DNA from: Acidobacteriota bacterium
Lineage (GTDB): Bacteria; Acidobacteriota; Vicinamibacteria; Vicinamibacterales; SCN-69-37
Reading direction: 5' to 3'
Length of the DNA stretch: 59,957 nt
Assembly (NCBI GenBank): GCA_013203475.1
Contig: JABMNV010000106.1
Coordinates: 1-59,957, forward strand
Below are positions 17,599-29,009 of the stretch, piece after piece. Below the pieces are notes generated by a model, which saw only the letters and a list, made by a program, of their open reading frames with translations, was not told the origin of the DNA and made no database searches. Position numbers and translations under genes: made by a program. How positions within the stretch are numbered: position 1 is the stretch's first letter; every line of letters begins with the position of its first letter.

Positions 17599-18783
17599 AT
17601 GCTGAACAAGCGTCGCTTTCTCATGCTGCTTTTGATTGCTTGTCTCGCCGTTGGTGGCACCCTCTTTCAAACCTATCAATTTGAACAGCGCGTCGATCGC
17701 GATCGCGCGGCGGAAGACGCAGTGGTTCAGCAATTGGATGCGACGGCCGACGCCCTGGCCGACGTTCGTTACGCACAAGCGGGGTATGTGGCCGTCGGCC
17801 AGGGCGCCGACTTCTGGATGGCCAGGTTTAACGAGGACCTGGCACGCGTCGAAGGAATGCTCCGCGAACGACAGCGAACCACGGTGTCGAGCGGCGCGCT
17901 GACTCACTACGACGCCGCGATTGAACAACTCGGCGCCTTGCGCAAGTCTGACGGCCGCGCCAGGAACTACGTCGACAATGGTCAGTTGATTCTGGCCTCC
18001 GATGTCATCTTTGTCGAAAGCGGTGAAATCATCGGCCAGATCGCCGGGAATGTCTCGGCCGCGCGTGACACAGAAAGTTTTGAGTCTCGGCGGGCGCTGG
18101 CGGACGTGACTCGTTATCGCCAGGCCGTTGGTGCGTCCGGGCTGGCATTCACACTCCTGGTGGGGATCATCCTTTACGCCAGGATCAAGGTCACTCCGAT
18201 TGAAGAACTGCCCCATGTGGTGGAAACAGCCGAAGATGCCGCGCAGCAAACGACTCCGACTAGCGTGGCAGCCCCAACCGAGGTCACCGGCGTCACCGGA
18301 GTCAAGGAAGCAGCCGATGTCTGTGTTGACTTGGCACGACTGCTCGACGGCCGCGACCTGCCGGTGCTCCTGAGTCGGGCCGCCGCGGCCATCGGAGCCA
18401 AGGGGCTGGTCTTGTGGGTCATCGACGAATCAGGCCAACACCTGCGGGCCTCAATGGCCCACGGGTATTCAGACCGAATGCTGTCGCGGCTGGGTCAGTT
18501 GCCGGTATCTGGTGACAACGCGACGGCGCTCGCCTGCCGGACGCTGCAGTCCCAGGTGGTGCCTGGCGCGTCGGATGAAGCCACTGGCGCGCTGGCCGTG
18601 CCACTCATTGGCGCCACTGGCTGCGTCGGTGTGTTGGCCGCAGAAATCGTGGGCACGGGCACCAGCAGGCACCAACTCCCGATTGCCAGACTGATTGCGG
18701 CCCAGCTCTCGGTGGTCATCCGCCCCGACGCCGCAACGTCCTCGTCGTCGTCTGAGTCCGTGGGCTCCGCCGCGGTCCAGTAG
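17599..18783 (+). CDS. Membrane protein: TM, helical periplasmic domain, TM, GAF-like domain
   Basis: Two hydrophobic segments; C-terminal LAVPLIGATGCVGVLAAE resembles a GAF strand motif; no output domain. Confidence 0.6.
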   Translation: MLNKRRFLMLLLIACLAVGGTLFQTYQFEQRVDRDRAAEDAVVQQLDATADALADVRYAQAGYVAVGQGADFWMARFNEDLARVEGMLRERQRTTVSSGALTHYDAAIEQLGALRKSDGRARNYVDNGQLILASDVIFVESGEIIGQIAGNVSAARDTESFESRRALADVTRYRQAVGASGLAFTLLVGIILYARIKVTPIEELPHVVETAEDAAQQTTPTSVAAPTEVTGVTGVKEAADVCVDLARLLDGRDLPVLLSRAAAAIGAKGLVLWVIDESGQHLRASMAHGYSDRMLSRLGQLPVSGDNATALACRTLQSQVVPGASDEATGALAVPLIGATGCVGVLAAEIVGTGTSRHQLPIARLIAAQLSVVIRPDAATSSSSSESVGSAAVQ

Positions 18784-18885
18784 GCGGTCCGCAGTGCCAC
18801 CGGCAGGCGGCACCGTCTGGCTCCAGACGTCACCCGATGCGTACAGTGTCAGCGCCTTTGCTGGCCCAAACACGGGATTCTAGTA

Positions 18886-18900
18886 CGGCACGCATCTTGA
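18886..18900 (+). promoter_or_regulatory. Putative sigma54 (-24/-12) promoter
   Basis: CGGCACGCATCTTGA versus consensus TGGCAC-N5-TTGC; GG-N10-GA spacing. Confidence 0.5.
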
Positions 18901-18914
18901 TTACTTAGGACATC

Positions 18915-19013
18915 GAAGTCGTTCGACGTCACACGGGGTGCGTCTCTCTCACGACAGGCAGGCGCTGGCATCGCAGCATCTCGTGGGTCTTTGGTTGACG
19001 CTCGAACGGCTTC
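18915..19013 (+). ncRNA. Candidate ~100-nt structured small RNA
   Basis: Stems GAAGUCGUUCGA/UCGAACGGCUUC, CGUCA/UGACG and CACGGGGUGC/GCAUCUCGUG. Three G-U pairs form only on the + strand. Confidence 0.55.
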
Positions 19014-20799
19014 ACTGCGTCAAGATCTTGAGGGCGACAACGGTGGTGTCGTCGTTGCGGGGGAACCCATCTCGATGGGCGTCCACGGCCTCAACGATCG
19101 AGTCGATGATTTCCTTTGCGGTCAGGTGCTTGGTGCTCGCCACGATGTCCAGCAACCGCTCACTGCCAAACTCGTCGCTTTGTCGATTCATCGCTTCCGT
19201 GACGCCATCTGAACAGAAGACGAAGACATCTCCCGACGACAGGGGCAGACTCACCTCGTCATAGGTCATCCCGGAGAACGACCCCAGAGGCACGCCGGGC
19301 GCTTCAATCAGACGACACTCATCGGCAGTGGCGCGAACGGGATACGGCAATCCCGAGTTCGACAGCGTGACCATCTTTCGCTTGAGGTCAAAGATCGCAT
19401 AACACAGCGTGCAGTAGTACTCCTCAAGCTTGCGCTCATGCAGGATCGTGTTGATCGACATCAACACCGCAGCCGGCGACGACCGTTCGGGAACATAGCG
19501 CCGACGGAAGGTGCGGCCACGCACCAACTCTCCGGCAAACACGCTGTACAGCGCGGCGGGAACCCCTTTGCCTGACACGTCACCAAGCGCGATGATCAGG
19601 GTGTTTGACTCTGGTACGAGGTAGTCGTAAAAGTCGCCGCCCAGTTCCAGTGCCGCAGAAAACGACGCGTGAACATCCACGCCCTTTAGGCGCTTTGGCA
19701 ATTTGGTTGGCAGGAGTGCGGCCTGCACACGCCGGGCGAATTTCAGTTCTTTCTCCAGCCGCGCTTCGGTCTCTGAGACCTCTTCGTAGAGGCGGGCGTT
19801 CTCAATGGCGACCGCAGCCTGGCTTGCCAGCAGCGTCAGAATCTCGACGTCTCGTTTGCTGAACGCATCCAGGTCAGGGCTTTCCAAATCGAAGACGCCC
19901 ACGCAGCGGTCCTTGAGCAACATGGGCACCGCCAGTTCCGAGCGCACGTCGTCGACGACCTTGATGTAGCGGGGATCCTTGGACACATCGGGCACCAACA
20001 CGGCCTCACGATGCAGGGCGGCGTAGCCGACCAAGCCCTCGCCCATGGGAATCTTGGGTAATTCGACCCGGTCGCCAAACTGCACGGCCACCTTGATTTC
20101 AAGCTCGTCGGTGGCCTCGTTGAGCAACAGGATTCCGAACGTGCGGTAGTCGACCACCCGACGCGCCAGCTGGGCGATCCGCTCCAGGAGCAGGTCCAGA
20201 TCCATCAACGCGGCCACGTCGCGGCCGATCTCGGCCAGCGTCTCGAACGCCTCGGCGTCGAGGCGCTGCTGCTCAAACAGACGCGCGTTGACAAGCGCCA
20301 AGGCCACGTGAGCACCAAACTGGCGAAGAATGGCCGCGTCTCGCTCAGAATACATGTCGCGCGATCGGCTCAGCACATTGAGGGCACCGATCGACTTCTT
20401 CTTGTGCACAAGCGGCACGGCCATCGTGGAGGCCATGCCTGGGACCAATTCGACGTATTGGGGCTCCAGGCTGATGTCCCCCACCAGCCGAGTCTCCTGC
20501 CTGGTGATCACCTGGCCGACCAGACCGTGAGTCACATGGGGGTGGTAGTGCGAGGTGTCGGGGTAGCCCACGGCGTATCCGATGCTGAGCTCCCCGCGTT
20601 TTTCATCGTGGAGGTAGACCGCAAACGCGTCGAACGGTATGAGGCGGCCGATGAGTTCGGGGATTTTCTCAAGCAACTCGTCCAGATCGATCACGGACGC
20701 CACCCGACGACCCAGGTCGAACAACGTCAACAAGATGTCGCGTTCGCTGGTACCCACAGAGAGGGGAGAGGAGAGACGATCGGTAGAATGCGAACTCAT
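19012..20799 (-). CDS. GAF-GAF-PP2C (RsbU-like) phosphatase
   Basis: Two GAF repeats (SELAVPM, AVAIENARLY); GGDFYD, GDVSGKG, SDGVTEA and DDTT motifs. Confidence 0.9.
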   Translation of the reverse strand: MSSHSTDRLSSPLSVGTSERDILLTLFDLGRRVASVIDLDELLEKIPELIGRLIPFDAFAVYLHDEKRGELSIGYAVGYPDTSHYHPHVTHGLVGQVITRQETRLVGDISLEPQYVELVPGMASTMAVPLVHKKKSIGALNVLSRSRDMYSERDAAILRQFGAHVALALVNARLFEQQRLDAEAFETLAEIGRDVAALMDLDLLLERIAQLARRVVDYRTFGILLLNEATDELEIKVAVQFGDRVELPKIPMGEGLVGYAALHREAVLVPDVSKDPRYIKVVDDVRSELAVPMLLKDRCVGVFDLESPDLDAFSKRDVEILTLLASQAAVAIENARLYEEVSETEARLEKELKFARRVQAALLPTKLPKRLKGVDVHASFSAALELGGDFYDYLVPESNTLIIALGDVSGKGVPAALYSVFAGELVRGRTFRRRYVPERSSPAAVLMSINTILHERKLEEYYCTLCYAIFDLKRKMVTLSNSGLPYPVRATADECRLIEAPGVPLGSFSGMTYDEVSLPLSSGDVFVFCSDGVTEAMNRQSDEFGSERLLDIVASTKHLTAKEIIDSIVEAVDAHRDGFPRNDDTTVVALKILTQ

Positions 20800-20862
20800 T
20801 GGTGGGCTGACGCGCGGGTGGAACTGCTTGCAATTATACTTGGTTCTCCAACAAAGCCGACC

Positions 20863-21318
20863 ATGACCGACTTGAAGCTTCCACTCGACTACACCGCGAT
20901 CGAACGCATCCTGCCCCACCGATATCCGTTTTTGTTGGTGGACCGCATTACCGAGTTCGAGCCCGACACGCGCATCGTCGGCATCAAGAACATCTCCAGC
21001 AACGAGCGGTCACTGGCAAGGTCCCCGGGCCAGCGCCCGGCCATGCCCTCCACCTTGCTGACCGAAGCCGTCGCCCAAGTGGGCGCGATTCTGATCCTTT
21101 CGAAGGAAGAGAATCGCGACAAGCTGATTTTCTTCATGGGTATCGAGCGCGTGCGCTACCGTCGGCCAGTGCATCCTGGCGATGTGGTGCAGATTGAGGC
21201 CATCGTCAAGCGATTGCGGAGTCGGATGGGCGTGCTCAGCGGCACGGCCACCGTCAACGGCAGAGTCGTGTTGACGGGCAAGATGACGTTCGCGTTGGGA
21301 CCTCGGGACGCTAGCTAG
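20863..21318 (+). CDS. FabZ-like hotdog-fold protein lacking the catalytic His
   Basis: LPHRYPFLLVDRI, EAVAQ and RRPVHPGD motifs; FFxGHFP is replaced by RSLARSPG. Confidence 0.8.
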   Translation: MTDLKLPLDYTAIERILPHRYPFLLVDRITEFEPDTRIVGIKNISSNERSLARSPGQRPAMPSTLLTEAVAQVGAILILSKEENRDKLIFFMGIERVRYRRPVHPGDVVQIEAIVKRLRSRMGVLSGTATVNGRVVLTGKMTFALGPRDAS

Positions 21319-22487
21319 ATCGAGCGAAGCATGATCAAGCCGTCCAGGGCGGCGACCCGAGCGCGGGCCGGATCGGGCACAGGCGCGGTCGTATCGGCCA
21401 CGACATAGACCATCTCGTTGCGGGTGGCACTGGCCAGTCCGGCCACGATGGCCCCTCCCCGGGTCAAGGAGTCTGACACCGTGGCCGCCGATTGCTCCGC
21501 GGCTCGCACGAGACAGAGACAACGATGCGCAGACTGTCTGGACGCTACCAGTTCAGGAAAATTGACGGCATTGCGCACGGAGCCGTGCTCCAGAAAATCA
21601 CGAACCTGGTCAGCCACCATCACGGCGCAGTTATCTTCGGCTTCTCCGGTGGACGCGCCCAGGTGTGGCAACGTGATGCACTTGGGATGATTGGTCGTCA
21701 GGGCTGTCGGAAAGTCACTGATGTAGCCATGGGCGTGCCCCATGTCGAGTGCCTCCACCATGGCCGCTTCGTTCACGATACCTTCGCGCGCGAAGTTCAG
21801 CACGACGACGCGCGGCTTCATTGCCTTGAGACGATCGGCGTCGATCAGGTTTCTCGTAGTCGACCCGAGGGGCACATGCGCCGTGACGAAGTCTGCCGTG
21901 CGAAGGGCTTCATCCAGAGAGCGCGCGCGCTGGATGGATGCAGACAATTGCCAGGCGCCGTCAAGCGTGAGGCCTGGGTCATACCCGACCACCCGCATGC
22001 CGAGTACGGCGGCGGCATTCGCCACGCGCCCGCCAATGGCGCCGAGACCGATCACGGCCAGCGTGCGGCCGGGCAGCTCGTAGCCGGCGAACATCTTCTT
22101 CCCCTTCTCCACCGCCGCCTTGAGTTCCTCTGGTGTGCTCGCCGCTTGCACCTGCTCACGCGCAAACAGCGCCGCCGGGACAATTTGCCGACACGACATA
22201 ATGAGAGCCGCAATGACGAGTTCTTTGACCGCATTGGCATTGGCGCCTGGGGCGTTGAAGACGGGAATGCCGCGCGCGGTCATCGCTGTGACCGGGATGT
22301 TGTTGACACCCGCGCCGGCGCGGCCAATCGCCTTCAGAGATGAGCCCAACTCAGCGGTGTGGAGATCAGCGGACCTGAGCAGGATGGCGTCAGGGTTGGA
22401 GAGGTCGGCGCCAGTGGTAAACCGGTCTTTGGGCAGCCGTGCGAGACCGACCGGAGAGATGTTGTTGAGTGTCTGGATGTTGAACAT
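21315..22487 (-). CDS. serA: D-3-phosphoglycerate dehydrogenase with C-terminal ACT-like domain
   Basis: RAGAGVNNI, PGANANAVKEL, GLGAIG, NFAR and PHLGASTGEAEDNC motifs. Confidence 0.85.
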   Translation of the reverse strand: MFNIQTLNNISPVGLARLPKDRFTTGADLSNPDAILLRSADLHTAELGSSLKAIGRAGAGVNNIPVTAMTARGIPVFNAPGANANAVKELVIAALIMSCRQIVPAALFAREQVQAASTPEELKAAVEKGKKMFAGYELPGRTLAVIGLGAIGGRVANAAAVLGMRVVGYDPGLTLDGAWQLSASIQRARSLDEALRTADFVTAHVPLGSTTRNLIDADRLKAMKPRVVVLNFAREGIVNEAAMVEALDMGHAHGYISDFPTALTTNHPKCITLPHLGASTGEAEDNCAVMVADQVRDFLEHGSVRNAVNFPELVASRQSAHRCLCLVRAAEQSAATVSDSLTRGGAIVAGLASATRNEMVYVVADTTAPVPDPARARVAALDGLIMLRSI

Positions 22488-22505
22488 GATGCTTGGCCAA
22501 GACTA

Positions 22506-23456
22506 TCAGGACCCTTTGTATAACACCCGGTCGAAGCGCCGATGGTACGACGTGAAGGGCCCAGCGGTATCGTCAGCGTCAATGTGTTTGTGCACCTGAT
22601 GAATCTTCGCGTCGAGGTCATCAGCCGCGGCCAGGATAAAGGCCTCGACGGTCATCGGCTCGACAGGAGACCCCATCGCTTTGGCACCGTGGTGTGACAG
22701 GACCAGATGTTCGAGCTGAAGCTGGATGTCATAGGGGAATCCGGTCATGGCCTGCGCTGTCTCTCGCACCAGCGACGCCCCCATGGTGATGTGGCCGATC
22801 AGGTTCCCTTCCACGGAATACTCGGTGGTCACGCCATACGACAGCTCATCGAGCTTACCAATGTCGTGCAGGATCGCTCCGGCCACCAACACGTCGCGAT
22901 TGGCACCGTAGGCGTCGGCGAGAAAGATCACCGTGTCGAGAATTTTGAGGACGTGTTCCAGAAGTCCGCCGCGGTAGGCGTGGTGCACCGACTGTGCCGC
23001 TGGCCAGATTCTGAGACGATCGCCCTGCTTCGCCAGAATGCGATTGAGCAACTCACGCACCTCCGGCGTGGTAATCCCCGCCACATGGGCCTCAAGCTCC
23101 TGCCACATCTCATCGAGCGGACGCGGGGCGCAGGGAATACACGACTCCTCACGAAAACCATCAAGCGCGTCGTGCTGCGCGTCAACCCGACGGATCTTGT
23201 CGATGACCAACTCCAACCGCTGATTGAAGAGGTTGCCGCGCGCCTGGATCTTCACGAACTCTCCGGCATCGAACTCGTCCTTCAGCACGTCGACATCCTG
23301 AAAGATTTTGGCCTTGATTTCGCCCGACGTGTCCTGAAGAACGATAGCGAGATAGTTGCCGCTCTTGCCTGAACGCAGTTCCTTTCGAGCGCACAAGAAG
23401 AACCCCCATCCGTTGGAGGTGCCGGTCAGATCAGAGATTTTTGATAGTTGGGTCAT
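22506..23456 (-). CDS. yhaM: YhaM/Cbf1-like 3'-5' exoribonuclease (OB fold + HD)
   Basis: N-terminal OB fold; PAAQSVHHAYRGGLLEH, LHDIGK, GHI, SHHG and DDLDAK motifs. Confidence 0.85.
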   Translation of the reverse strand: MTQLSKISDLTGTSNGWGFFLCARKELRSGKSGNYLAIVLQDTSGEIKAKIFQDVDVLKDEFDAGEFVKIQARGNLFNQRLELVIDKIRRVDAQHDALDGFREESCIPCAPRPLDEMWQELEAHVAGITTPEVRELLNRILAKQGDRLRIWPAAQSVHHAYRGGLLEHVLKILDTVIFLADAYGANRDVLVAGAILHDIGKLDELSYGVTTEYSVEGNLIGHITMGASLVRETAQAMTGFPYDIQLQLEHLVLSHHGAKAMGSPVEPMTVEAFILAAADDLDAKIHQVHKHIDADDTAGPFTSYHRRFDRVLYKGS

Positions 23457-23652
23457 GGGCCAACTGAGTGTACTGCGAGATGTTCACGCGCTCCGAGTGC
23501 CTCACAGACGCGGTGCTTCCGTTTTCTGGACTGGGGTGGTCTTTTGTCCGTACCGTCCTCGATTGGCGCAGGCCGGCTGGCAGCGGCAAACCCGGAGACC
23601 TACGGCCGCCAAAGTCGATGCCTGGATGGCCGTTGGACGACCGTGAAGGCAC

Positions 23653-23897
23653 GTCGTTAATCGCAGTCAGGACAAGGACATGGTCACAACCCTCGGGTGG
23701 TTCATCTGCCACACGTTGACGGTCGACGAGGGTGTCAGGTCCCGCACCGTCCGGACCTGAAGGCCACCCACACCTACGGCGACGATCAGAAGGTCCTGCT
23801 GTCCACCGAGACGATGACCGTCGCCGTGACCGGCAGTTCGTTCACTTACACCTTTCCCGCGCACTCCCTGACGATTCTCCGTGTGAAGGGTGGGTAG
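23653..23897 (+). pseudogene. Fragment of an alpha-L-arabinofuranosidase (GH51) C-terminal domain
   Basis: [13 protein letters not shown] and, in another frame, [11 protein letters not shown]...[17 protein letters not shown]; no catalytic domain. Confidence 0.6.
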
Positions 23898-23986
23898 TGC
23901 CCTCGGGGCTGTAGCGCGCCTGAGCCGAAGGCCCGAAGAACCGTTTGTTCCGGGGCTTGATGAAGAATCCGGGCTAGTATTCCGAT

Positions 23987-24541
23987 ATGCGTACGAATTT
24001 TTCTATTTTGGGGCGGTCACGTGTCCCGCAGTCATTGGTCGCGCTGGCTGGCCTGTTCACGATTTCGTGTGCACCTGCGGCTGATTCGACGGCTGTGGAG
24101 CAGGCGGCGCAGGCGGCTGCACCAACCCCGCCTCCCGCGACTGGATTTCAGGTGGCGCCAGGGCTCCCGCCCCTCCCCACCGCTGGCCTGGCGGCCGCAC
24201 CTCGGTCCGTAGAGACCGTCCGTGCGGTCTACGAATTCGCGGCCAGTCACCCTGAGGTGCTCGACTACGTGCCCTGCTTTTGTGGTTGTGAAAGTGCGGG
24301 CCACAAGAGCAACACCCATTGTTTTGTCGGCGCTCGCAATTCAGAGGGTACCGTCACGCAGTGGGATTACCACGGACTCACTTGAGGGATCTGTATTGAC
24401 GTCGCGCGTGACGCGATGCAAATGTACAACGGTGGTACCTCGGTGAAAGACATTCGATCGTCCATCGACAAGAAATACGCGGGTGCGATGACCCGCACGC
24501 CGACACCGGCACCGCCCGACGGTGGCGGCGATCGGCACTAG
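23987..24541 (+). CDS. PCYCGC-motif lipoprotein, probable selenoprotein (UGA at 24383-24385 = Sec), 184 aa
   Basis: Lipobox TISC; PCFCGC..GHKSN.HCF; WDYHGLT-UGA-GICIDVA continues in frame through IRSSIDKKY and TPTPAPP to TAG at 24539-24541. Confidence 0.85.
24392..24420 (+). promoter_or_regulatory. Bacterial SECIS-like hairpin
   Basis: UGUAUUG-A-CGUC[GCGCGU]GACG-CGAUGCA. The apical loop starts with G, 18 nt after the UGA. Confidence 0.7.
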
Positions 24542-24548
24542 GACTCTC

Positions 24549-26078
24549 GTGGCCAGCGGTCGCCACCCCTCGCTTCCGGACGATGCGTTTTTTCATCTGT
24601 TCGAGGGACTGCGCGAGGGCGTCTACATCGGGTTGATCGGGGCCGACTCCTCCGCAACGTTCGCCGCCAATCCCCACCTCCGGTTGATCCTGGGGTGGGC
24701 CGAAGACGTGGCCACCAGCGAGGTTCGGCCATTTGAAGCCGACCGTTTTGTCGACCCGATCGCACGCGACAGCTTCGTCTCACTGCTCAAGCGGGACGGC
24801 GCCGTTCACGATCACCTGCTCCGCCTCAGACGGGTCGACGGCACGGCGGTGTGGATCGAAGTCACGGCCCGGGCCGGACCGCTCGCTGATTCGCTTCGTG
24901 TGGAAGCCGTGATGCGCGACGTCACCGAGCGGAAGAAGCTCGAGGACCAGGCCCGGGAGGTCTTCCACCAACTCTCACAGGCAGAAAAGCTTGCGGCCCT
25001 GGGACAGACGATGTCCGGCGTCGCGCATGAACTCAATAACCCTTTGGCCACGGTGTTGGCCTGCGCTGAGCGCCTGGCCGGACGCCAACTCGACGACCAG
25101 ACATCACGCGACCTGGACGCGATTCATAACGCCGCCGAACGCGCAGCCCGAATCGTACGAAACCTTCAGACGTTTGCCCGCAAACGGCATACGACACGCA
25201 CGATGGTAGACATCAATCACGTGATGCGCGACACGCTCGCCCTGCGTGCGTATGAACAGCAAGTCGCCAATGTCGTGATCGTTGAGGCCCTGGCGTCGGC
25301 ATTGCCACAGGTGTTTGCCGACCCGCATCAAATTCAGCAAGTACTCCTCAACCTCGTCATCAACGCCGAACACGCGATGCTTGGCGCACACGGTCGTGGC
25401 TTGATGATGCTGCGCTCGTGGCATGAACCTGAGCGCGACGCGGTGCTGCTCGAAGTGAGCGATGACGGCCCGGGTATTCCCGAGGACGTACAGGCCAAGA
25501 TCTTTGATCCGTTCTTTACAACAAAGGCCGTCGGTAAGGGCACCGGGCTTGGGCTGACGGTCGCCTACGCCATCGCTCACGAGCACGGTGGCCGGATCAG
25601 CGTGTCGTCCGTTCCGGGCGGTGGCGCGTCCTTCGTGCTCGAACTGCCGTCAGGTGGCACGCACGTTCGGGCGCCTGAGTCGTCGTCGGCGCCTCCAGCC
25701 GCGGAAGTGCCCGTGGGAACGCGGGCCCTGGTCGTGGAAGACGAACAGGCGCTGGGTGAGGCCGTGGCAGACACGCTCAGGGACGCCGGGTTCGAAGTGG
25801 ATCGTGCGGCCGATGGCGAAGAGGCGATCGCGCACACACAAACGCGCGCCTACGACGTGATCATTTGTGACCTGAAGATGCCGCGCGTGGACGGCATGGA
25901 ATTTTTTGATCATCTCGCGGCCACGGCGCCTGCGCTGACGAAGCGCTTGATCTTCGTGACGGGCGATGTGGCGGGAACCGAAGCGGAAGCGTTTCTTGAA
26001 CGCAGCGGCTGCCATTGGCTGGCCAAGCCGTTCCGGTTACGCGACGTCGTACGTCTGGCGCGTGAAGTGATCGCGTAG
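24549..26078 (+). CDS. Cytoplasmic hybrid histidine kinase (PAS-HisKA-HATPase-REC)
   Basis: RDVTERK, AHELNNPL, QVLLNLVINA, DDGPGI, FFTTK, GTGLGL; receiver VEDE/CDLKMP/KPF. GTG at 24549 after AGGA preferred. Confidence 0.9.
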   Translation: MASGRHPSLPDDAFFHLFEGLREGVYIGLIGADSSATFAANPHLRLILGWAEDVATSEVRPFEADRFVDPIARDSFVSLLKRDGAVHDHLLRLRRVDGTAVWIEVTARAGPLADSLRVEAVMRDVTERKKLEDQAREVFHQLSQAEKLAALGQTMSGVAHELNNPLATVLACAERLAGRQLDDQTSRDLDAIHNAAERAARIVRNLQTFARKRHTTRTMVDINHVMRDTLALRAYEQQVANVVIVEALASALPQVFADPHQIQQVLLNLVINAEHAMLGAHGRGLMMLRSWHEPERDAVLLEVSDDGPGIPEDVQAKIFDPFFTTKAVGKGTGLGLTVAYAIAHEHGGRISVSSVPGGGASFVLELPSGGTHVRAPESSSAPPAAEVPVGTRALVVEDEQALGEAVADTLRDAGFEVDRAADGEEAIAHTQTRAYDVIICDLKMPRVDGMEFFDHLAATAPALTKRLIFVTGDVAGTEAEAFLERSGCHWLAKPFRLRDVVRLAREVIA

Positions 26079-26096
26079 CGTGATCGTAGAAAGTGT

Positions 26097-26846
26097 CTAG
26101 GCGACGGCCTGAGACTCGAAGGCCAGCGCCGGCATCTTCGCGGGCATCAGGGCTGTGCGCAAGCGAGCCACCGCACGGGCATGCAGTTGTGACACGCGCG
26201 ATTCGTTCACGCCAATATCCTTCCCAATCTGCTTCATCGTCGCTTCACGGAAGTAGTAGAGGCTGATAATCCGGCGCTCGCGGGCCGGCAGGGACGCCAA
26301 GGCCGCTCGGACACGCGCACGTGATTCGTTGTCTTCGTATTCCCGATCAGGCGCGGGGGGTTCGCTCGGCACGAGCACTGCGGGCAACGTGGAGCTGTTC
26401 ACCGAATCGTGGTTGGCCATCGGCGAGGTCGACTCGATCGTGCTGATTCGAAGGATCGTGCGTTCGAGTCGGGACTCATCGGCCCCAACTCGCTTGGCCA
26501 GGTCGGAAAGCGTCGGCTCGGCGCCGAGCTCGCGGCGAAGCGATTCGCGGGCGGCCTCAAGCTCACGGCGTTGGCGGCGCACGCCGCGAGGCCAGGCGTC
26601 ACGGCGCAGGGCGTCGATCATGGCACCGCGCACCCGGCGCTCAGCAAACGTCTCAAACTTGATTCCCCGAGCCTCGTCAAAACGGTGCGCCGCGTCCATA
26701 AGGCCAATCACGCCATCCTGGACTAGGTCACTCACGTCGACGGAGTTGGGCATCGTGGACGCCATGCGTCGGGCGAGTGATTCGACGAACGGTAGTGTGG
26801 CGACGACCCGGTCGTGCTGGTGATTGGCAAGTGGCGAACGCTGCAT
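26097..26846 (-). CDS. RNA polymerase sigma factor, FliA/WhiG (sigma28) family
   Basis: DLVQDGVIGL, KFETFAERRVRGAMID and IGVNESRVSQLH motifs; GGAGG RBS. Confidence 0.9.
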   Translation of the reverse strand: MQRSPLANHQHDRVVATLPFVESLARRMASTMPNSVDVSDLVQDGVIGLMDAAHRFDEARGIKFETFAERRVRGAMIDALRRDAWPRGVRRQRRELEAARESLRRELGAEPTLSDLAKRVGADESRLERTILRISTIESTSPMANHDSVNSSTLPAVLVPSEPPAPDREYEDNESRARVRAALASLPARERRIISLYYFREATMKQIGKDIGVNESRVSQLHARAVARLRTALMPAKMPALAFESQAVA

Positions 26847-26896
26847 AGACCCTCCAGGTGAGCCGGCCAGCTAGTTGGCCGAACGCTGCTATGAAG

Positions 26897-26913
26897 GGCA
26901 ACACGGATGCCAA
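26897..26913 (-). promoter_or_regulatory. sigma54 (-24/-12) promoter of the sigma28-family gene
   Basis: Minus strand TTGGCATCCGTGTTGCC: GG-N10-GC, about 50 nt upstream of the ATG. Confidence 0.8.
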
Positions 26914-26975
26914 GTCGATAAGCGAAGAAAGAACAAAACTGTCTTCGGCCGGTGACTTCGCACTAACCGTCTTGT

Positions 26976-26988
26976 TATCAGTGATTTA
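26976..26988 (+). promoter_or_regulatory. IHF binding site
   Basis: TATCAGTGATTTA matches WATCARNNNNTTR; lies between the promoter and the enhancer sites. Confidence 0.6.
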
Positions 26989-27043
26989 AGAGGTTGTTTC
27001 GGGGTGTGAAGGTGTGTGCAACGGCGTGCTTTTTTGGGACGAA

Positions 27044-27092
27044 GTGGTCAATCGTATGACAGGCCGTGAAGGGCGTGGTCAAAAATATGACA
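27044..27092. promoter_or_regulatory. Tandem enhancer (UAS) sites GTCA-N6-TGAC
   Basis: GTGGTCAATCGTATGACA (27044-27061) and GTGGTCAAAAATATGACA (27075-27092), with a 31-bp period. Confidence 0.7.
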
Positions 27093-27335
27093 CTAGGAAG
27101 TCTCTGGGATGGGGATGATTTGGCGAATCTGCTGGCTGGTTCGGATGGCCTCAAGTGCGCCTGCGACCACTTGGGTCGCCCGGGCTCGATGCGTCTCTTC
27201 AGCCAGGCGGTGCTCGAGTAGTTCGGCGTTCGCCAGGATAATCCCGAGTTGGTTATTCAGGCGGTGAAAGAGCTGGTTGAGGTCGCGTTCTGTCGTTGTC
27301 GCGCCAACATCTGCCCGAATGTCTGGTCGAGCCAT
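27093..27335 (-). CDS. Stand-alone HisKA/DHp micro-protein (80 aa)
   Basis: LFHRLNNQLGIILANAELL H-box helix plus a second helix; no ATPase or sensor domain. Confidence 0.7.
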   Translation of the reverse strand: MARPDIRADVGATTTERDLNQLFHRLNNQLGIILANAELLEHRLAEETHRARATQVVAGALEAIRTSQQIRQIIPIPETS

Positions 27336-27342
27336 GATCTGG

Positions 27343-27546
27343 TCAGGCAGACCGATGCAGGTCGAAGGCGCTCGTGGTGGGAGCATGAGCATCGCGCCAC
27401 AGGGAATCTTCGAAGATGCGAACGGACCCGCCGGCCGTTCTGACGTACTGCACCTTGCGGCTGGCGATCCAGTTGTAAATGGTCCGGCGACTGACACCCA
27501 CCACTTCACACGCTCTGGGAATTGAGACGGTCTTCCGTTCAAGCAT
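27343..27546 (-). CDS. Small excisionase/MerR-like (BldC-like) HTH DNA-binding protein (67 aa)
   Basis: ACEVVGVSRRTIYNWIASRKVQYVRTAGGSVRI. Confidence 0.8.
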   Translation of the reverse strand: MLERKTVSIPRACEVVGVSRRTIYNWIASRKVQYVRTAGGSVRIFEDSLWRDAHAPTTSAFDLHRSA

Positions 27547-27556
27547 ACGTCCGGAA

Positions 27557-27584
27557 CTATCGGCCGCCTCGGCGGCGAACTGTA
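27557..27584 (-). promoter_or_regulatory. Putative sigma28-type promoter
   Basis: Minus strand TACA-N16-GCCGATAG versus TAAA-N15/16-GCCGATAA; ends 10 nt before the HTH ATG. Confidence 0.6.
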
Positions 27585-27614
27585 GGTCTGTGTCAAAATA
27601 CCGGCGCGCTCCAC

Positions 27615-29009
27615 ATGTCTGCTGACGAACTTCATCCCCTTCACCTGCTGCTGGTCGACGACGAGGCCGCGTTTCGGGAAGTGATTGCGGAGCGTCTGGC
27701 TGAGCACGGGTATCGAGTTGAGCAGGCGGGCACGGGCGAAGAGGCGCTCGAGCGACTCAACGACTTTGCCTTCGACATTCTCCTGACGGATCTTCGATTG
27801 CCCGGCGTGGACGGGCGGCAAGTGCTCGACGAGGCGTTTGCGCGCTACCCCGACATCATTGCGGTGGTGATTACGGGATTCGGCACTGTGCGCGAGGCGG
27901 TTGAGGTCACCCAACTGGGCGCTGAAGGTTTCATCACAAAGCCGTTTCAGTTCGAGGAATTGGTGCACGCGCTGCACACAGCGGTCGAAAAGCGGCGGCT
28001 GCGCTCAGAGAACGCGTACCTGCGCGAACAACTCCTCACGCGATTTCACCTCGGCGGCATCATTGGCCAGGCCGCGCCGGTGGTGCAGATGCTCGAACTG
28101 ATTCAGACGGTGGCTGTGACGGCAAGCACCGTGCTCATCACAGGAGAGACGGGCACCGGAAAGGAATTGGCTGCGCGGGCGATTCACGACGCCAGTCCGA
28201 GGCGGTTGCAGAAATTTGTGGCGATCAACTGCAGCGCCATTCCAGAGACGTTGCTTGAGGCGGAGTTGTTTGGGCACGTGCGGGGCGCCTTCACGGGCGC
28301 GGTGGCCAATCGGCAGGGCCGGTTGGAGCAGGCTCATCGAGGAACGTTGTTCCTCGATGAGGTGGGCACTATGAGCCTGCCGCTGCAGGTCAAGTTGCTG
28401 CGTGTCCTGCAGTCACGGGAGTTCGAGCGCGTCGGCGAGTCGCAAACCGTCAAGGTGGATGTGCGCGTGATCGCGGCCACCAATTCGGACCTCAAACAAA
28501 TGGTGACTGAGGGCTCCTTCCGCGAGGACCTGTATTACCGGCTCAACGTGATTCCCGTGCACGTGCCCGCGCTCAGGGAGCGCCGGTCGGATGTGCCGTT
28601 GCTGGCGCAGCACTTCCTCGATCGGTTGAGCAAAGAAACACCGTCGCGGGGGAGGGTCACTATCGCCCAGGATACCCAGCAGGCCTTGATGGCCCACTCC
28701 TGGCCTGGCAATGTCCGTCAGTTGGAGAACGTAATGGAGCGCGCGTTTGCCCTATCGCCAGGACGCGCGCAACTCGAGTTGGCCGATTTGCAGGAAGATA
28801 TTCGGGGAAGCGTGGCCCCGTTGACGTCTGAGTCCGTGGCTTTCTCAGCCGAAGGTGTTGACTTCGGCGACTTAGTGGCGCAGTTTGAACATGCACTGAT
28901 TCGACGCGCCCTTGAACACAGCGGTGGAAACAAACGCGTGGCGTCGGATTTGCTGAAGATCAAGCGCACGACCTTGATCGAGAAACTTAAACGCCTGGAG
29001 CGTTCCTGA
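27615..29009 (+). CDS. sigma54-dependent response regulator (NtrC family, REC-AAA+-Fis HTH)
   Basis: VDDE, DLRLP, GETGTGKE, GAFTGA, FLDEVG, FREDLYYRLNV, WPGNVRQLEN and a C-terminal HTH. Confidence 0.95.
   Translation: MSADELHPLHLLLVDDEAAFREVIAERLAEHGYRVEQAGTGEEALERLNDFAFDILLTDLRLPGVDGRQVLDEAFARYPDIIAVVITGFGTVREAVEVTQLGAEGFITKPFQFEELVHALHTAVEKRRLRSENAYLREQLLTRFHLGGIIGQAAPVVQMLELIQTVAVTASTVLITGETGTGKELAARAIHDASPRRLQKFVAINCSAIPETLLEAELFGHVRGAFTGAVANRQGRLEQAHRGTLFLDEVGTMSLPLQVKLLRVLQSREFERVGESQTVKVDVRVIAATNSDLKQMVTEGSFREDLYYRLNVIPVHVPALRERRSDVPLLAQHFLDRLSKETPSRGRVTIAQDTQQALMAHSWPGNVRQLENVMERAFALSPGRAQLELADLQEDIRGSVAPLTSESVAFSAEGVDFGDLVAQFEHALIRRALEHSGGNKRVASDLLKIKRTTLIEKLKRLERS

Follow-up and report, generated by a model that had tools for sequence, protein, structure and literature searches.

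A structured RNA family of Vicinamibacterales behind a conserved sigma-54-type promoter box

The sigma-54-dependent small RNAs (sRNAs) of Gammaproteobacteria include, in addition to Qrr, the RNAs GlmY and GlmZ (GlrR) and CrcZ (CbrB), all of which act with Hfq or by sequestering RapZ or Crc. Their shared logic, in which a two-component system works through an NtrC-type activator on a sigma-54 promoter to produce a small RNA, is that of the LuxO/sigma-54/Qrr circuit (bioRxiv 10.1101/2021.07.01.450815). The Pxr sRNA of Myxococcus and related myxobacteria is encoded by a lineage-specific, intergenic region of 108 nt, is apparently transcribed from a sigma-54 promoter, adjoins the gene of the NtrC-like bacterial enhancer-binding protein (bEBP) nla19, and has been detected as RNA (PMC5568312). 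Here we describe an element at 18886-19014 of a 59,957-nt stretch of DNA (the window) from an Acidobacteriota bacterium of the order Vicinamibacterales (GCA_013203475.1, contig JABMNV010000106.1, positions 1 to 59,957 of the forward strand). The element belongs to a real, previously undescribed RNA family. On balance we favor reading it as the gene for a structured RNA of about 100 nt that is specific to Vicinamibacterales, has a sigma-54-type promoter, and carries out a function of its own in trans.

In logic the element comes nearest to Pxr, which it resembles in its length of about 100 nt, its confinement to one lineage, its intergenic position, its sigma-54-type promoter box, and its linkage to an NtrC-like bEBP gene (PMC5568312). 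That source gives a prediction of three stem-loops for Pxr and places its gene immediately after the bEBP gene, whereas the element forms a single rod with one large loop and lies 4-18 kb from its candidate bEBP gene. The two have no similarity in sequence or model, and the element is known here from sequence alone. The likeness to Qrr, GlmY/GlmZ, and CrcZ is limited to circuit logic: the element occurs in another phylum, has no homology to them, and folds differently, and neither Hfq nor CsrA was found in its source genome. Motifs of the Weinberg type, such as the Acido-1 RNA of Acidobacteria, are also conserved, covarying, and intergenic, and often lie upstream of one gene family. Unlike them, the element matches no family in Rfam 15, persists without the downstream gene, and carries its own conserved promoter box; the Acido-1 model itself, whose gathering score is 50, reached 15.7 bits, on the opposite strand and outside the element. 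Our literature search returned no paper on small RNAs in Vicinamibacterales, or on sigma-54 together with sRNAs in Acidobacteria, and the main text of two 2026 preprints mapping noncoding families mentions neither the taxon nor sigma-54.

A first-pass annotation, made from the sequence of the window, placed a structured RNA in a gap between convergent genes. Open reading frame (ORF) calls agree, with a plus-strand ORF at 17599-18783 and a minus-strand ORF at 19012-20919 enclosing a gap of 228 bp in the source genome (G000). The long rod that the annotation described from 18915 onward, with its stems of 12, 5, and 10 bp, was reproduced on folding. The predicted outer helix, P1, joins a 5′ arm at 18915-18931 to a 3′ arm at 18996-19013 on the plus strand, pairing 18915-18926 with 19002-19013 (12 bp) and 18927-18931 with 18996-19000 (5 bp) and leaving C19001 bulged. 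The predicted inner helix, P2, pairs 18932-18941 with 18976-18985 (10 bp) and closes an apical loop at 18942-18975. Folding of 18912-19013 on the plus strand gave -43.6 kcal/mol, compared with -33.0 ± 3.6 kcal/mol for shuffled sequences (z = -2.93; 2 of 200 shuffles were as good). The minus strand also folds well (z = -3.15), so fold energy alone cannot choose the strand.

Covariation across the family supports both helices and bears on the strand. The sequence sample on which the covariation and promoter counts rest was chosen by an exact 19-mer and by the box pattern. When 125 sequences were aligned with MAFFT on sequence alone, RNAalifold returned 24 pairs, 19 of them with compensatory change. 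The annotation had proposed a covariation check; its outcome is that 19 of the 21 P1 and P2 pairs change on both sides (12 of 12 aligned pairs in P1, 7 of 9 in P2). Over these 21 pairs, 95.8% of cells can pair, compared with 83.3 ± 0.4% in shuffles (0 of 500 reached the observed value); 342 cells are changed on both sides versus 90.5 in shuffles; and the covariation score is 0.484 versus 0.241. Pairing falls to 37-47% of cells when the partner is slid by 1-3 columns. Single pairs swap freely, one pair occurring as CG 48, GC 43, and GU 12 times and another as AU 40, GC 33, CG 23, and GU 21 times. A mutual-information scan of the family alignment returned no extra helix, pseudoknot, or further loop pairing. 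Strand assignment follows from the non-Watson-Crick pairs. As the annotation had argued for the window copy, all three of these (one in the 12-bp stem and two in the 10-bp stem) are G-U on the plus strand and would be A-C on the other, and across the family G-U or U-G occupies 297 of 2625 cells while A-C or C-A occupies 34. We therefore read the RNA from the plus strand, which is the strand of the box, and regard selection on a plus-strand structured RNA as very likely.

A covariance model built from the family (R1; 96 positions, 25 pairs) has its sole match in the source genome at 18914-19014 on the plus strand (70.4 bits, E = 1.9e-11, model positions 1-96). Exactly one full-length R1 match occurs in each of 121 of 151 genomes of Vicinamibacterales, covering 64 of 79 genera, while one family of the order has none in 11 genomes. 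A separate draw of 151 genomes across the phylum, 11 of them from the order (G000 included), gave 7 matches, which all fall within these 11; the 140 other Acidobacteriota gave none. BLAST of the gap against the source genome and 40 relatives matched 33 of the 41, including 17 of the 19 sampled genomes of the window's genus; the conserved segment begins exactly at the box (18883) and stops with the end of the rod. In an alignment of 19 BLAST relatives, an unchanged ACGGCAC-N5-CTTGAT is followed by about 12 variable bases and then by stems around an unchanged AGGCAGGCGCTGGCATCGC. Scanning for this 19-mer in one genome per species gave at least 120 loci among the matches listed, with titles that are almost all Vicinamibacterales or Acidobacteriota metagenome-assembled genomes. 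Nine of the listed loci lack the standard box: two are true members with one-letter box variants (L085, 91 bits; L054, 44 bits), and the other seven were set aside as chance matches to the core alone in other phyla. L054, in which P1 is decayed and CTGA replaces TTGA in the box, is possibly a dying copy. No divergent copy was found in the syntenic block of the RNA-negative genomes G033 and G053, where the best model score was 16 bits.

The source assembly holds 3.58 Mb in 264 contigs and is 95.8% complete. Against the concern, raised in the annotation itself, that the rod might be a dispersed repeat, BLAST of the gap and the covariance model each give one copy in this genome; the second-best BLAST match (36 nt, E = 0.0045, on contig C70) sits within an ORF and was discarded. 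Rfam 15, the database against which the annotation proposed to compare the element, yielded no convincing match for the gap at E ≤ 10, and across the whole window no model reached its gathering score. Signal recognition particle (SRP) RNA and 6S RNA were considered and rejected, as neither RF00169 nor RF00013 matches at the element and both RNAs are located elsewhere. The 6S RNA of the source genome lies on another contig (C135:9793-9977), and canonical SRP RNA was found far from the element copy in 21 of the 26 genomes searched (a set that included G000); one example is G034, with SRP RNA at 136,611 and the element at 421,456. Because relatives carry canonical SRP RNA far from it, the element is not a divergent SRP RNA. 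The bacterial small SRP RNA model has no match in the G000 assembly, most likely owing to an assembly gap or incomplete assembly.

The upstream box, CGGCACGCATCTTGA, occupies 18886-18900 on the plus strand, with GG at 18887-18888 and TTGA at 18897-18900, just as first described. For comparison, the sigma-54 consensus is TGGCACG-N4-TTGCW. The usual sigma-54 geometry, in which the G of TTG is -13, would put transcription start at 18912. A box of the same spacing precedes the core in 111 of the 120 core loci listed, which answers the annotation's call for a check of promoter conservation; in these, box and core are 57-69 nt apart, or 94 nt in one locus with an insertion. Anchored on GG, the 110 listed loci with enough flank read GGCACG-N4-TTGAW. 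The selection pattern fixed part of the box positions; the free ones agree with the consensus: G follows GGCAC in 89 of 110 loci and A or T follows the -12 base in 110 of 110. Flanking positions carry 0-0.2 bit of information. In the same 110 loci P1 begins at a constant, gap-free 26-27 nt from GG, and the predicted +1 thus falls 1-3 nt before the helix. The canonical TTGC, as in GGCACGGAACTTGC, occurs in 3 of the 21 members that were fetched independently; the three belong to a single other family of the order. The box pattern is rare in the source genome (37 matches on both strands, 7.2 Mb) and is enriched, in small numbers, in the intergenic tenth or so of the genome (TTGA 5 of 15, TTGC 4 of 8).

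Other intergenic matches to GGCA[CT][GA]-N4-TTG[AC]W in the source genome, at C21:2900(-), C54:21148(-), C72:95(+), C246:33181(-), C39:25(+), C230:1732(-), C232:24113(-), and C246:20591(+), are likewise candidate sigma-54 promoters by sequence, half of them with A at -12 as in the RNA box.

The genome has the machinery that such a promoter needs, with rpoN represented by one Sigma54_DBD match (209.5 bits) and the bEBP ATPase domain (Sigma54_activat) by 14 matches, one of which lies in the window. No plausible coding sequence follows the box, in agreement with the annotation; the only plus-strand ORFs there, at 18938-19264 and 18991-19212, are both antisense to the convergent gene. We consider it probable that the RNA is driven by sigma-54.

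The bEBP encoded in the window is an NtrC-type activator at 27522-29009 on the plus strand (Pfam receiver, Sigma54_activat, and HTH_8), the candidate cognate regulator. It has a strong match in 44 of 46 RNA-positive genomes searched, on the same contig as the RNA in 33 and on a different contig in the other 11. In 31 of the 33 same-contig genomes, compared by eye, the orthologue is 4-18 kb away from the RNA; in 30 it follows the RNA in the same orientation and in one it is on the other side. The two exceptions are at 31 kb and 100 kb. A second comparison, of five genomes, shows the same linkage. Upstream of the box, palindromes of the type CGTC-N6-14-GACG end 35-85 nt before GG in 49 of 110 listed loci (spacer exactly 10 in 43), whereas shuffles give 2.2 and a control window lying further upstream gives 6. 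The clade of the window has other palindromes in their place. One of them, CGTCTGG-CT-CCAGACG at 18814-18829, is centered near -90, and its 2-nt center is too short for an RNA hairpin loop. A second palindrome, TGCC-N10-GGCA at 18795-18812, is centered near -108 from the predicted +1, and similar strings of the form TG(C/G)CC-N8-GG(C/G)CA occupy the corresponding position in roughly half of the relatives at genus level, compared by eye. By position and symmetry these palindromes fit enhancer sites and are candidate bEBP sites. A further motif on the plus strand at 18828-18846, CGTCAYC-N4-GCGTACAG, is conserved within a sub-clade (the window, L018, and L020-L025), where its distance from the box is constant. 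In many loci (L039-L149) the word AGGTCA recurs 6 nt before the CGTC-N10-GACG palindrome and could be a second protein site.

The apical loop contains the 19-nt core AGGCAGGCGCTGGCATCGC at 18956-18974, present in all 19 BLAST relatives, and within it the universally kept GGCAGGCGCTGGC at 18957-18969. The 19-mer looks invariant partly because the search used it. Among the 21 lower-scoring R1 matches fetched without that filter, 11-18 core letters survive in 20, with the 3′ UCGC varying, and G108 has no recognizable core. The 13-mer GGCAGGCGCUGGC (18957-18969 in the window) is complete in 18 of these 21. The loop is composed of GGCA units, AGGCAGGCGCUGGCA, and as such would suit a protein site no less than a base-pairing seed. 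Several loci (L039, L072, L127, L155, L159, L186, L192, L195-L197, and L199) carry CUGGCAGGGC inserted in the 3′ linker between P2 and P1, where it looks like a second copy of the GGCA units of the loop. Loci L035 and L038 have an insertion of about 25 nt with a small hairpin (CCGGCA...TGTCGG) between the 5′ arm of P2 and the core, which shows that insertions are tolerated in the 5′ part of the loop.

The mechanism that we infer from these features is as follows. Sigma-54 RNA polymerase would bind the GGCACG-N4-TTGAW box at 18886-18900, and an NtrC-type enhancer-binding protein, acting from the palindromes 60-110 bp upstream, would open the complex. The best candidate for this regulator is the product of 27522-29009 together with the hybrid kinase at 24522-26078, which would link that kinase to the RNA and make the regulator the activator of the RNA promoter. 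Transcription would begin near 18912, 1-3 nt before P1. The transcript would fold into a rod of covarying P1 and P2 that displays an apical loop of 26-35 nt with the nearly unchanging GGCAGGCGCUGGC, and this loop would be the working part, recognized by a conserved partner that may be a protein or another RNA. In most relatives the transcript would continue into a small gene for a lipoprotein with a putative OB fold and would there also serve as its 5′ leader, while in the source genome, where that gene is missing, the RNA would stand alone between convergent genes.

The main rival reading is that the RNA is primarily a cis-acting 5′ leader of this lipoprotein gene, working as an attenuator, through a bound protein, or as a ligand sensor, and that the window copy is an orphan left by gene loss. 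The gene lies directly downstream on the same strand in 67 of the 120 core loci listed, often with only 15-40 nt between P1 and its start; this spacing leaves no room for a promoter of its own and, since it includes a Shine-Dalgarno-like string, makes the RNA the 5′ leader of the lipoprotein mRNA in those species. In its product a lipobox-bearing signal peptide precedes ...NPGRYxDKTVxVxGVVTSSWGxPLVP..., and the protein matches OB-fold families only below threshold (PF01336, E = 2e-4; NirD/YgiW/YdeI stress OB-fold, E = 3e-3). The 10 nt after P1 hold a mean of 5.0 T before the lipoprotein gene (n = 58) and 4.1 in other contexts, and this T-rich stretch could be a regulated terminator. The leader reading also draws on the finding of neither a trans target nor Hfq. 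Against it stands the persistence of helices, box, and core where the gene is absent or unlinked: in 17 of 19 sampled genomes of the window's genus, in the 21 of 120 listed loci where the convergent PP2C gene is the next neighbor, and in the 8 of 106 aligned members where fabZ is next (motif ERILPHR). Neither the lipoprotein gene nor the PP2C gene is next in 22 of the 120 listed loci, the 7 chance loci included. The lipoprotein gene was not found in G000, nor with this query in G008 and G038, and G016 and G034 have only paralogues of 39-41% identity, elsewhere in the genome and without the box. A constant position upstream of one gene family, which would mark a cis leader, was found neither in the window nor at 29 or more other loci, and the simple rod with a large terminal loop has no multi-helix junction and no extra covarying pairs. 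Because the RNA, with box and loop intact, is kept where the lipoprotein gene is missing, we argue for a function of its own, in trans, and lean slightly toward its independence from the lipoprotein gene, leaving about a one-in-four share of our belief, in round terms, to a primarily leader role. The annotation's phrase for the element, a novel sigma-54-dependent sRNA, is supported in part, as regards novelty against Rfam, single copy, covariation, plus strand, and conserved box; its stand-alone character does not extend to the 67 listed loci in which it is a leader. The annotation also let the 3′ end touch the stop codon of the convergent gene. P1 does reach into that codon (19012-19014) with its last two bases, but what ends there is the helix, with the U-rich tail absent, and not a mapped RNA end.

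Several further results weigh against the trans-acting, sigma-54-driven RNA that we favor. A search for RNA sequencing runs covering the stretch returned none. No conserved complementary target appeared at BLAST sensitivity among relatives, and the second BLAST matches in G023, G024, and G030 were rejected as targets since they fall within unrelated ORFs. Complementary words of at least 10 nt occur at 339 places in G000, none of which stands out; the loop scored against 2698 crude translation-start regions of that genome stayed within the range of 5 shuffled loops; and pairing with the lipobox-coding part of the linked lipoprotein mRNA was discarded, at -25.5 kcal/mol versus -25.0 kcal/mol for shuffled loops. 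Hfq and CsrA were sought without success in the 95.8%-complete source genome. No hairpin-plus-T-run (intrinsic) terminator was found in 18500-19300 (0 sites), and the window copy, with 3 T in the 10 nt after P1, lacks a U-rich tail that would mark a 3′ end. As regards the regulator, rpoN is also present in 5 of 5 RNA-negative genomes tested, so that co-occurrence is uninformative, an orthologue of the activator occurs in 12 of 15 RNA-negative genomes, and the RNA-negative G053 keeps the whole gene block; because of this, the linkage of bEBP and RNA may be plain synteny. The choice of the sequence sample by core and box belongs with these points, as does the base at -12, which is A in 93, G in 9, T in 7, and C in 1 of the 110 listed loci and in the window is A, not the canonical C. 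This base, with the retention of rpoN and bEBP by RNA-negative relatives, would suit a box that is some other RNA or DNA motif, with the rod coming from the 3′ untranslated region (UTR) of the upstream gene or from another promoter. We think this improbable, since the constant GG-N8-TTG spacing fits only sigma-54-type promoters, the free G(+5) and W(+14) match the consensus, the 11 nt separating box and P1 show no conservation, as would a -12 to +1 spacer, three members have canonical TTGC, and a simple scan of 18500-19300 found no sigma-70-like promoter. The upstream neighbor, moreover, varies (an extra gene in G024 and G020), yet the distance from box to P1 is constant. That the element is no more than a bidirectional terminator hairpin, a palindrome in the DNA, or a repeat of the repetitive extragenic palindrome or miniature inverted-repeat transposable element type would be compatible with its location between convergent genes and with both strands folding better than shuffles; we give this next to no credence given a single copy in G000 and every positive genome, the lack of a T-run, a loop conserved across 64 genera while the stems covary, the excess of G-U over A-C (297 versus 34), and a co-directional gene after the element in most loci. 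The GGCA-unit loop, the failure to find Hfq and CsrA, and the absence of a complementary target that stands out together suggest a protein-titrating decoy instead of a base-pairing sRNA, an idea that we rate as a long shot. Were it true, the RNA could sequester a regulator of the neighboring circuit (PP2C phosphatase, sigma factor, kinase, and NtrC-type activator), and CUGGCA, which resembles the -24 element read by sigma-54, would allow feedback on its own circuit.

One partial complementarity to the loop (-30.9 kcal/mol) was seen in UGCCAGCGCCAGCC, within the 5′ UTR of another response-regulator bEBP gene of the source genome (C119:10603-12003); it lies within the range of the shuffled controls and is probably due to chance.

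The genes around the element form a conserved block. Upstream, the plus-strand gene at 17599-18783 (stop TAG at 18781-18783) encodes a 394-aa protein with an N-terminal hydrophobic stretch and a weak GAF_3 match, and is part of the block. The convergent RsbU-like gene at 19012-20919 on the minus strand (stop TCA, TGA on its own strand, at 19012-19014) encodes a 635-aa protein with two GAF domains and a SpoIIE/PP2C domain (Pfam), and is also found beside the RNA in the 10-kb loci examined. From 19012 to 29009 this GAF-SpoIIE phosphatase (-) is followed by a 2-hydroxyacid dehydrogenase (-), an HD+OB protein (-) at 22506-23456, a PCYCGC protein (+), a hybrid histidine kinase (+) at 24522-26078, a 249-aa sigma-70-family sigma factor (-) at 26097-26846 (Pfam), and the NtrC-type activator (+), an order kept across several families of the order. 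We take the HD+OB protein to resemble YhaM-type exoribonucleases. The hybrid kinase, a candidate sensor with Pfam HisKA, HATPase_c, and receiver domains, has an orthologue in the same block of G034, G038, and G053. Across families the block reads membrane protein, RNA, (lipoprotein), convergent PP2C, fabZ, HD-OB, PCYCGC, kinase, sigma factor, activator, and the genes at 19012-29009 may be one signaling module.

Soils and waters are rich in Vicinamibacterales (Acidobacteria subdivision 6), an order with almost no genetics. The RNA family offers an entry point to their sigma-54 signaling and RNA regulation, since its promoter can be tested, it has a candidate activator of the two-component type, and its loop is sharply delimited; the covariance model R1 could seed an Rfam family. 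If its proposed regulation is borne out, the family would be a further, independent example, from another phylum, of the circuit of NtrC-type regulator, sigma-54 promoter, and small RNA that is represented in Vibrio, enterobacteria, Pseudomonas, and Myxococcus.

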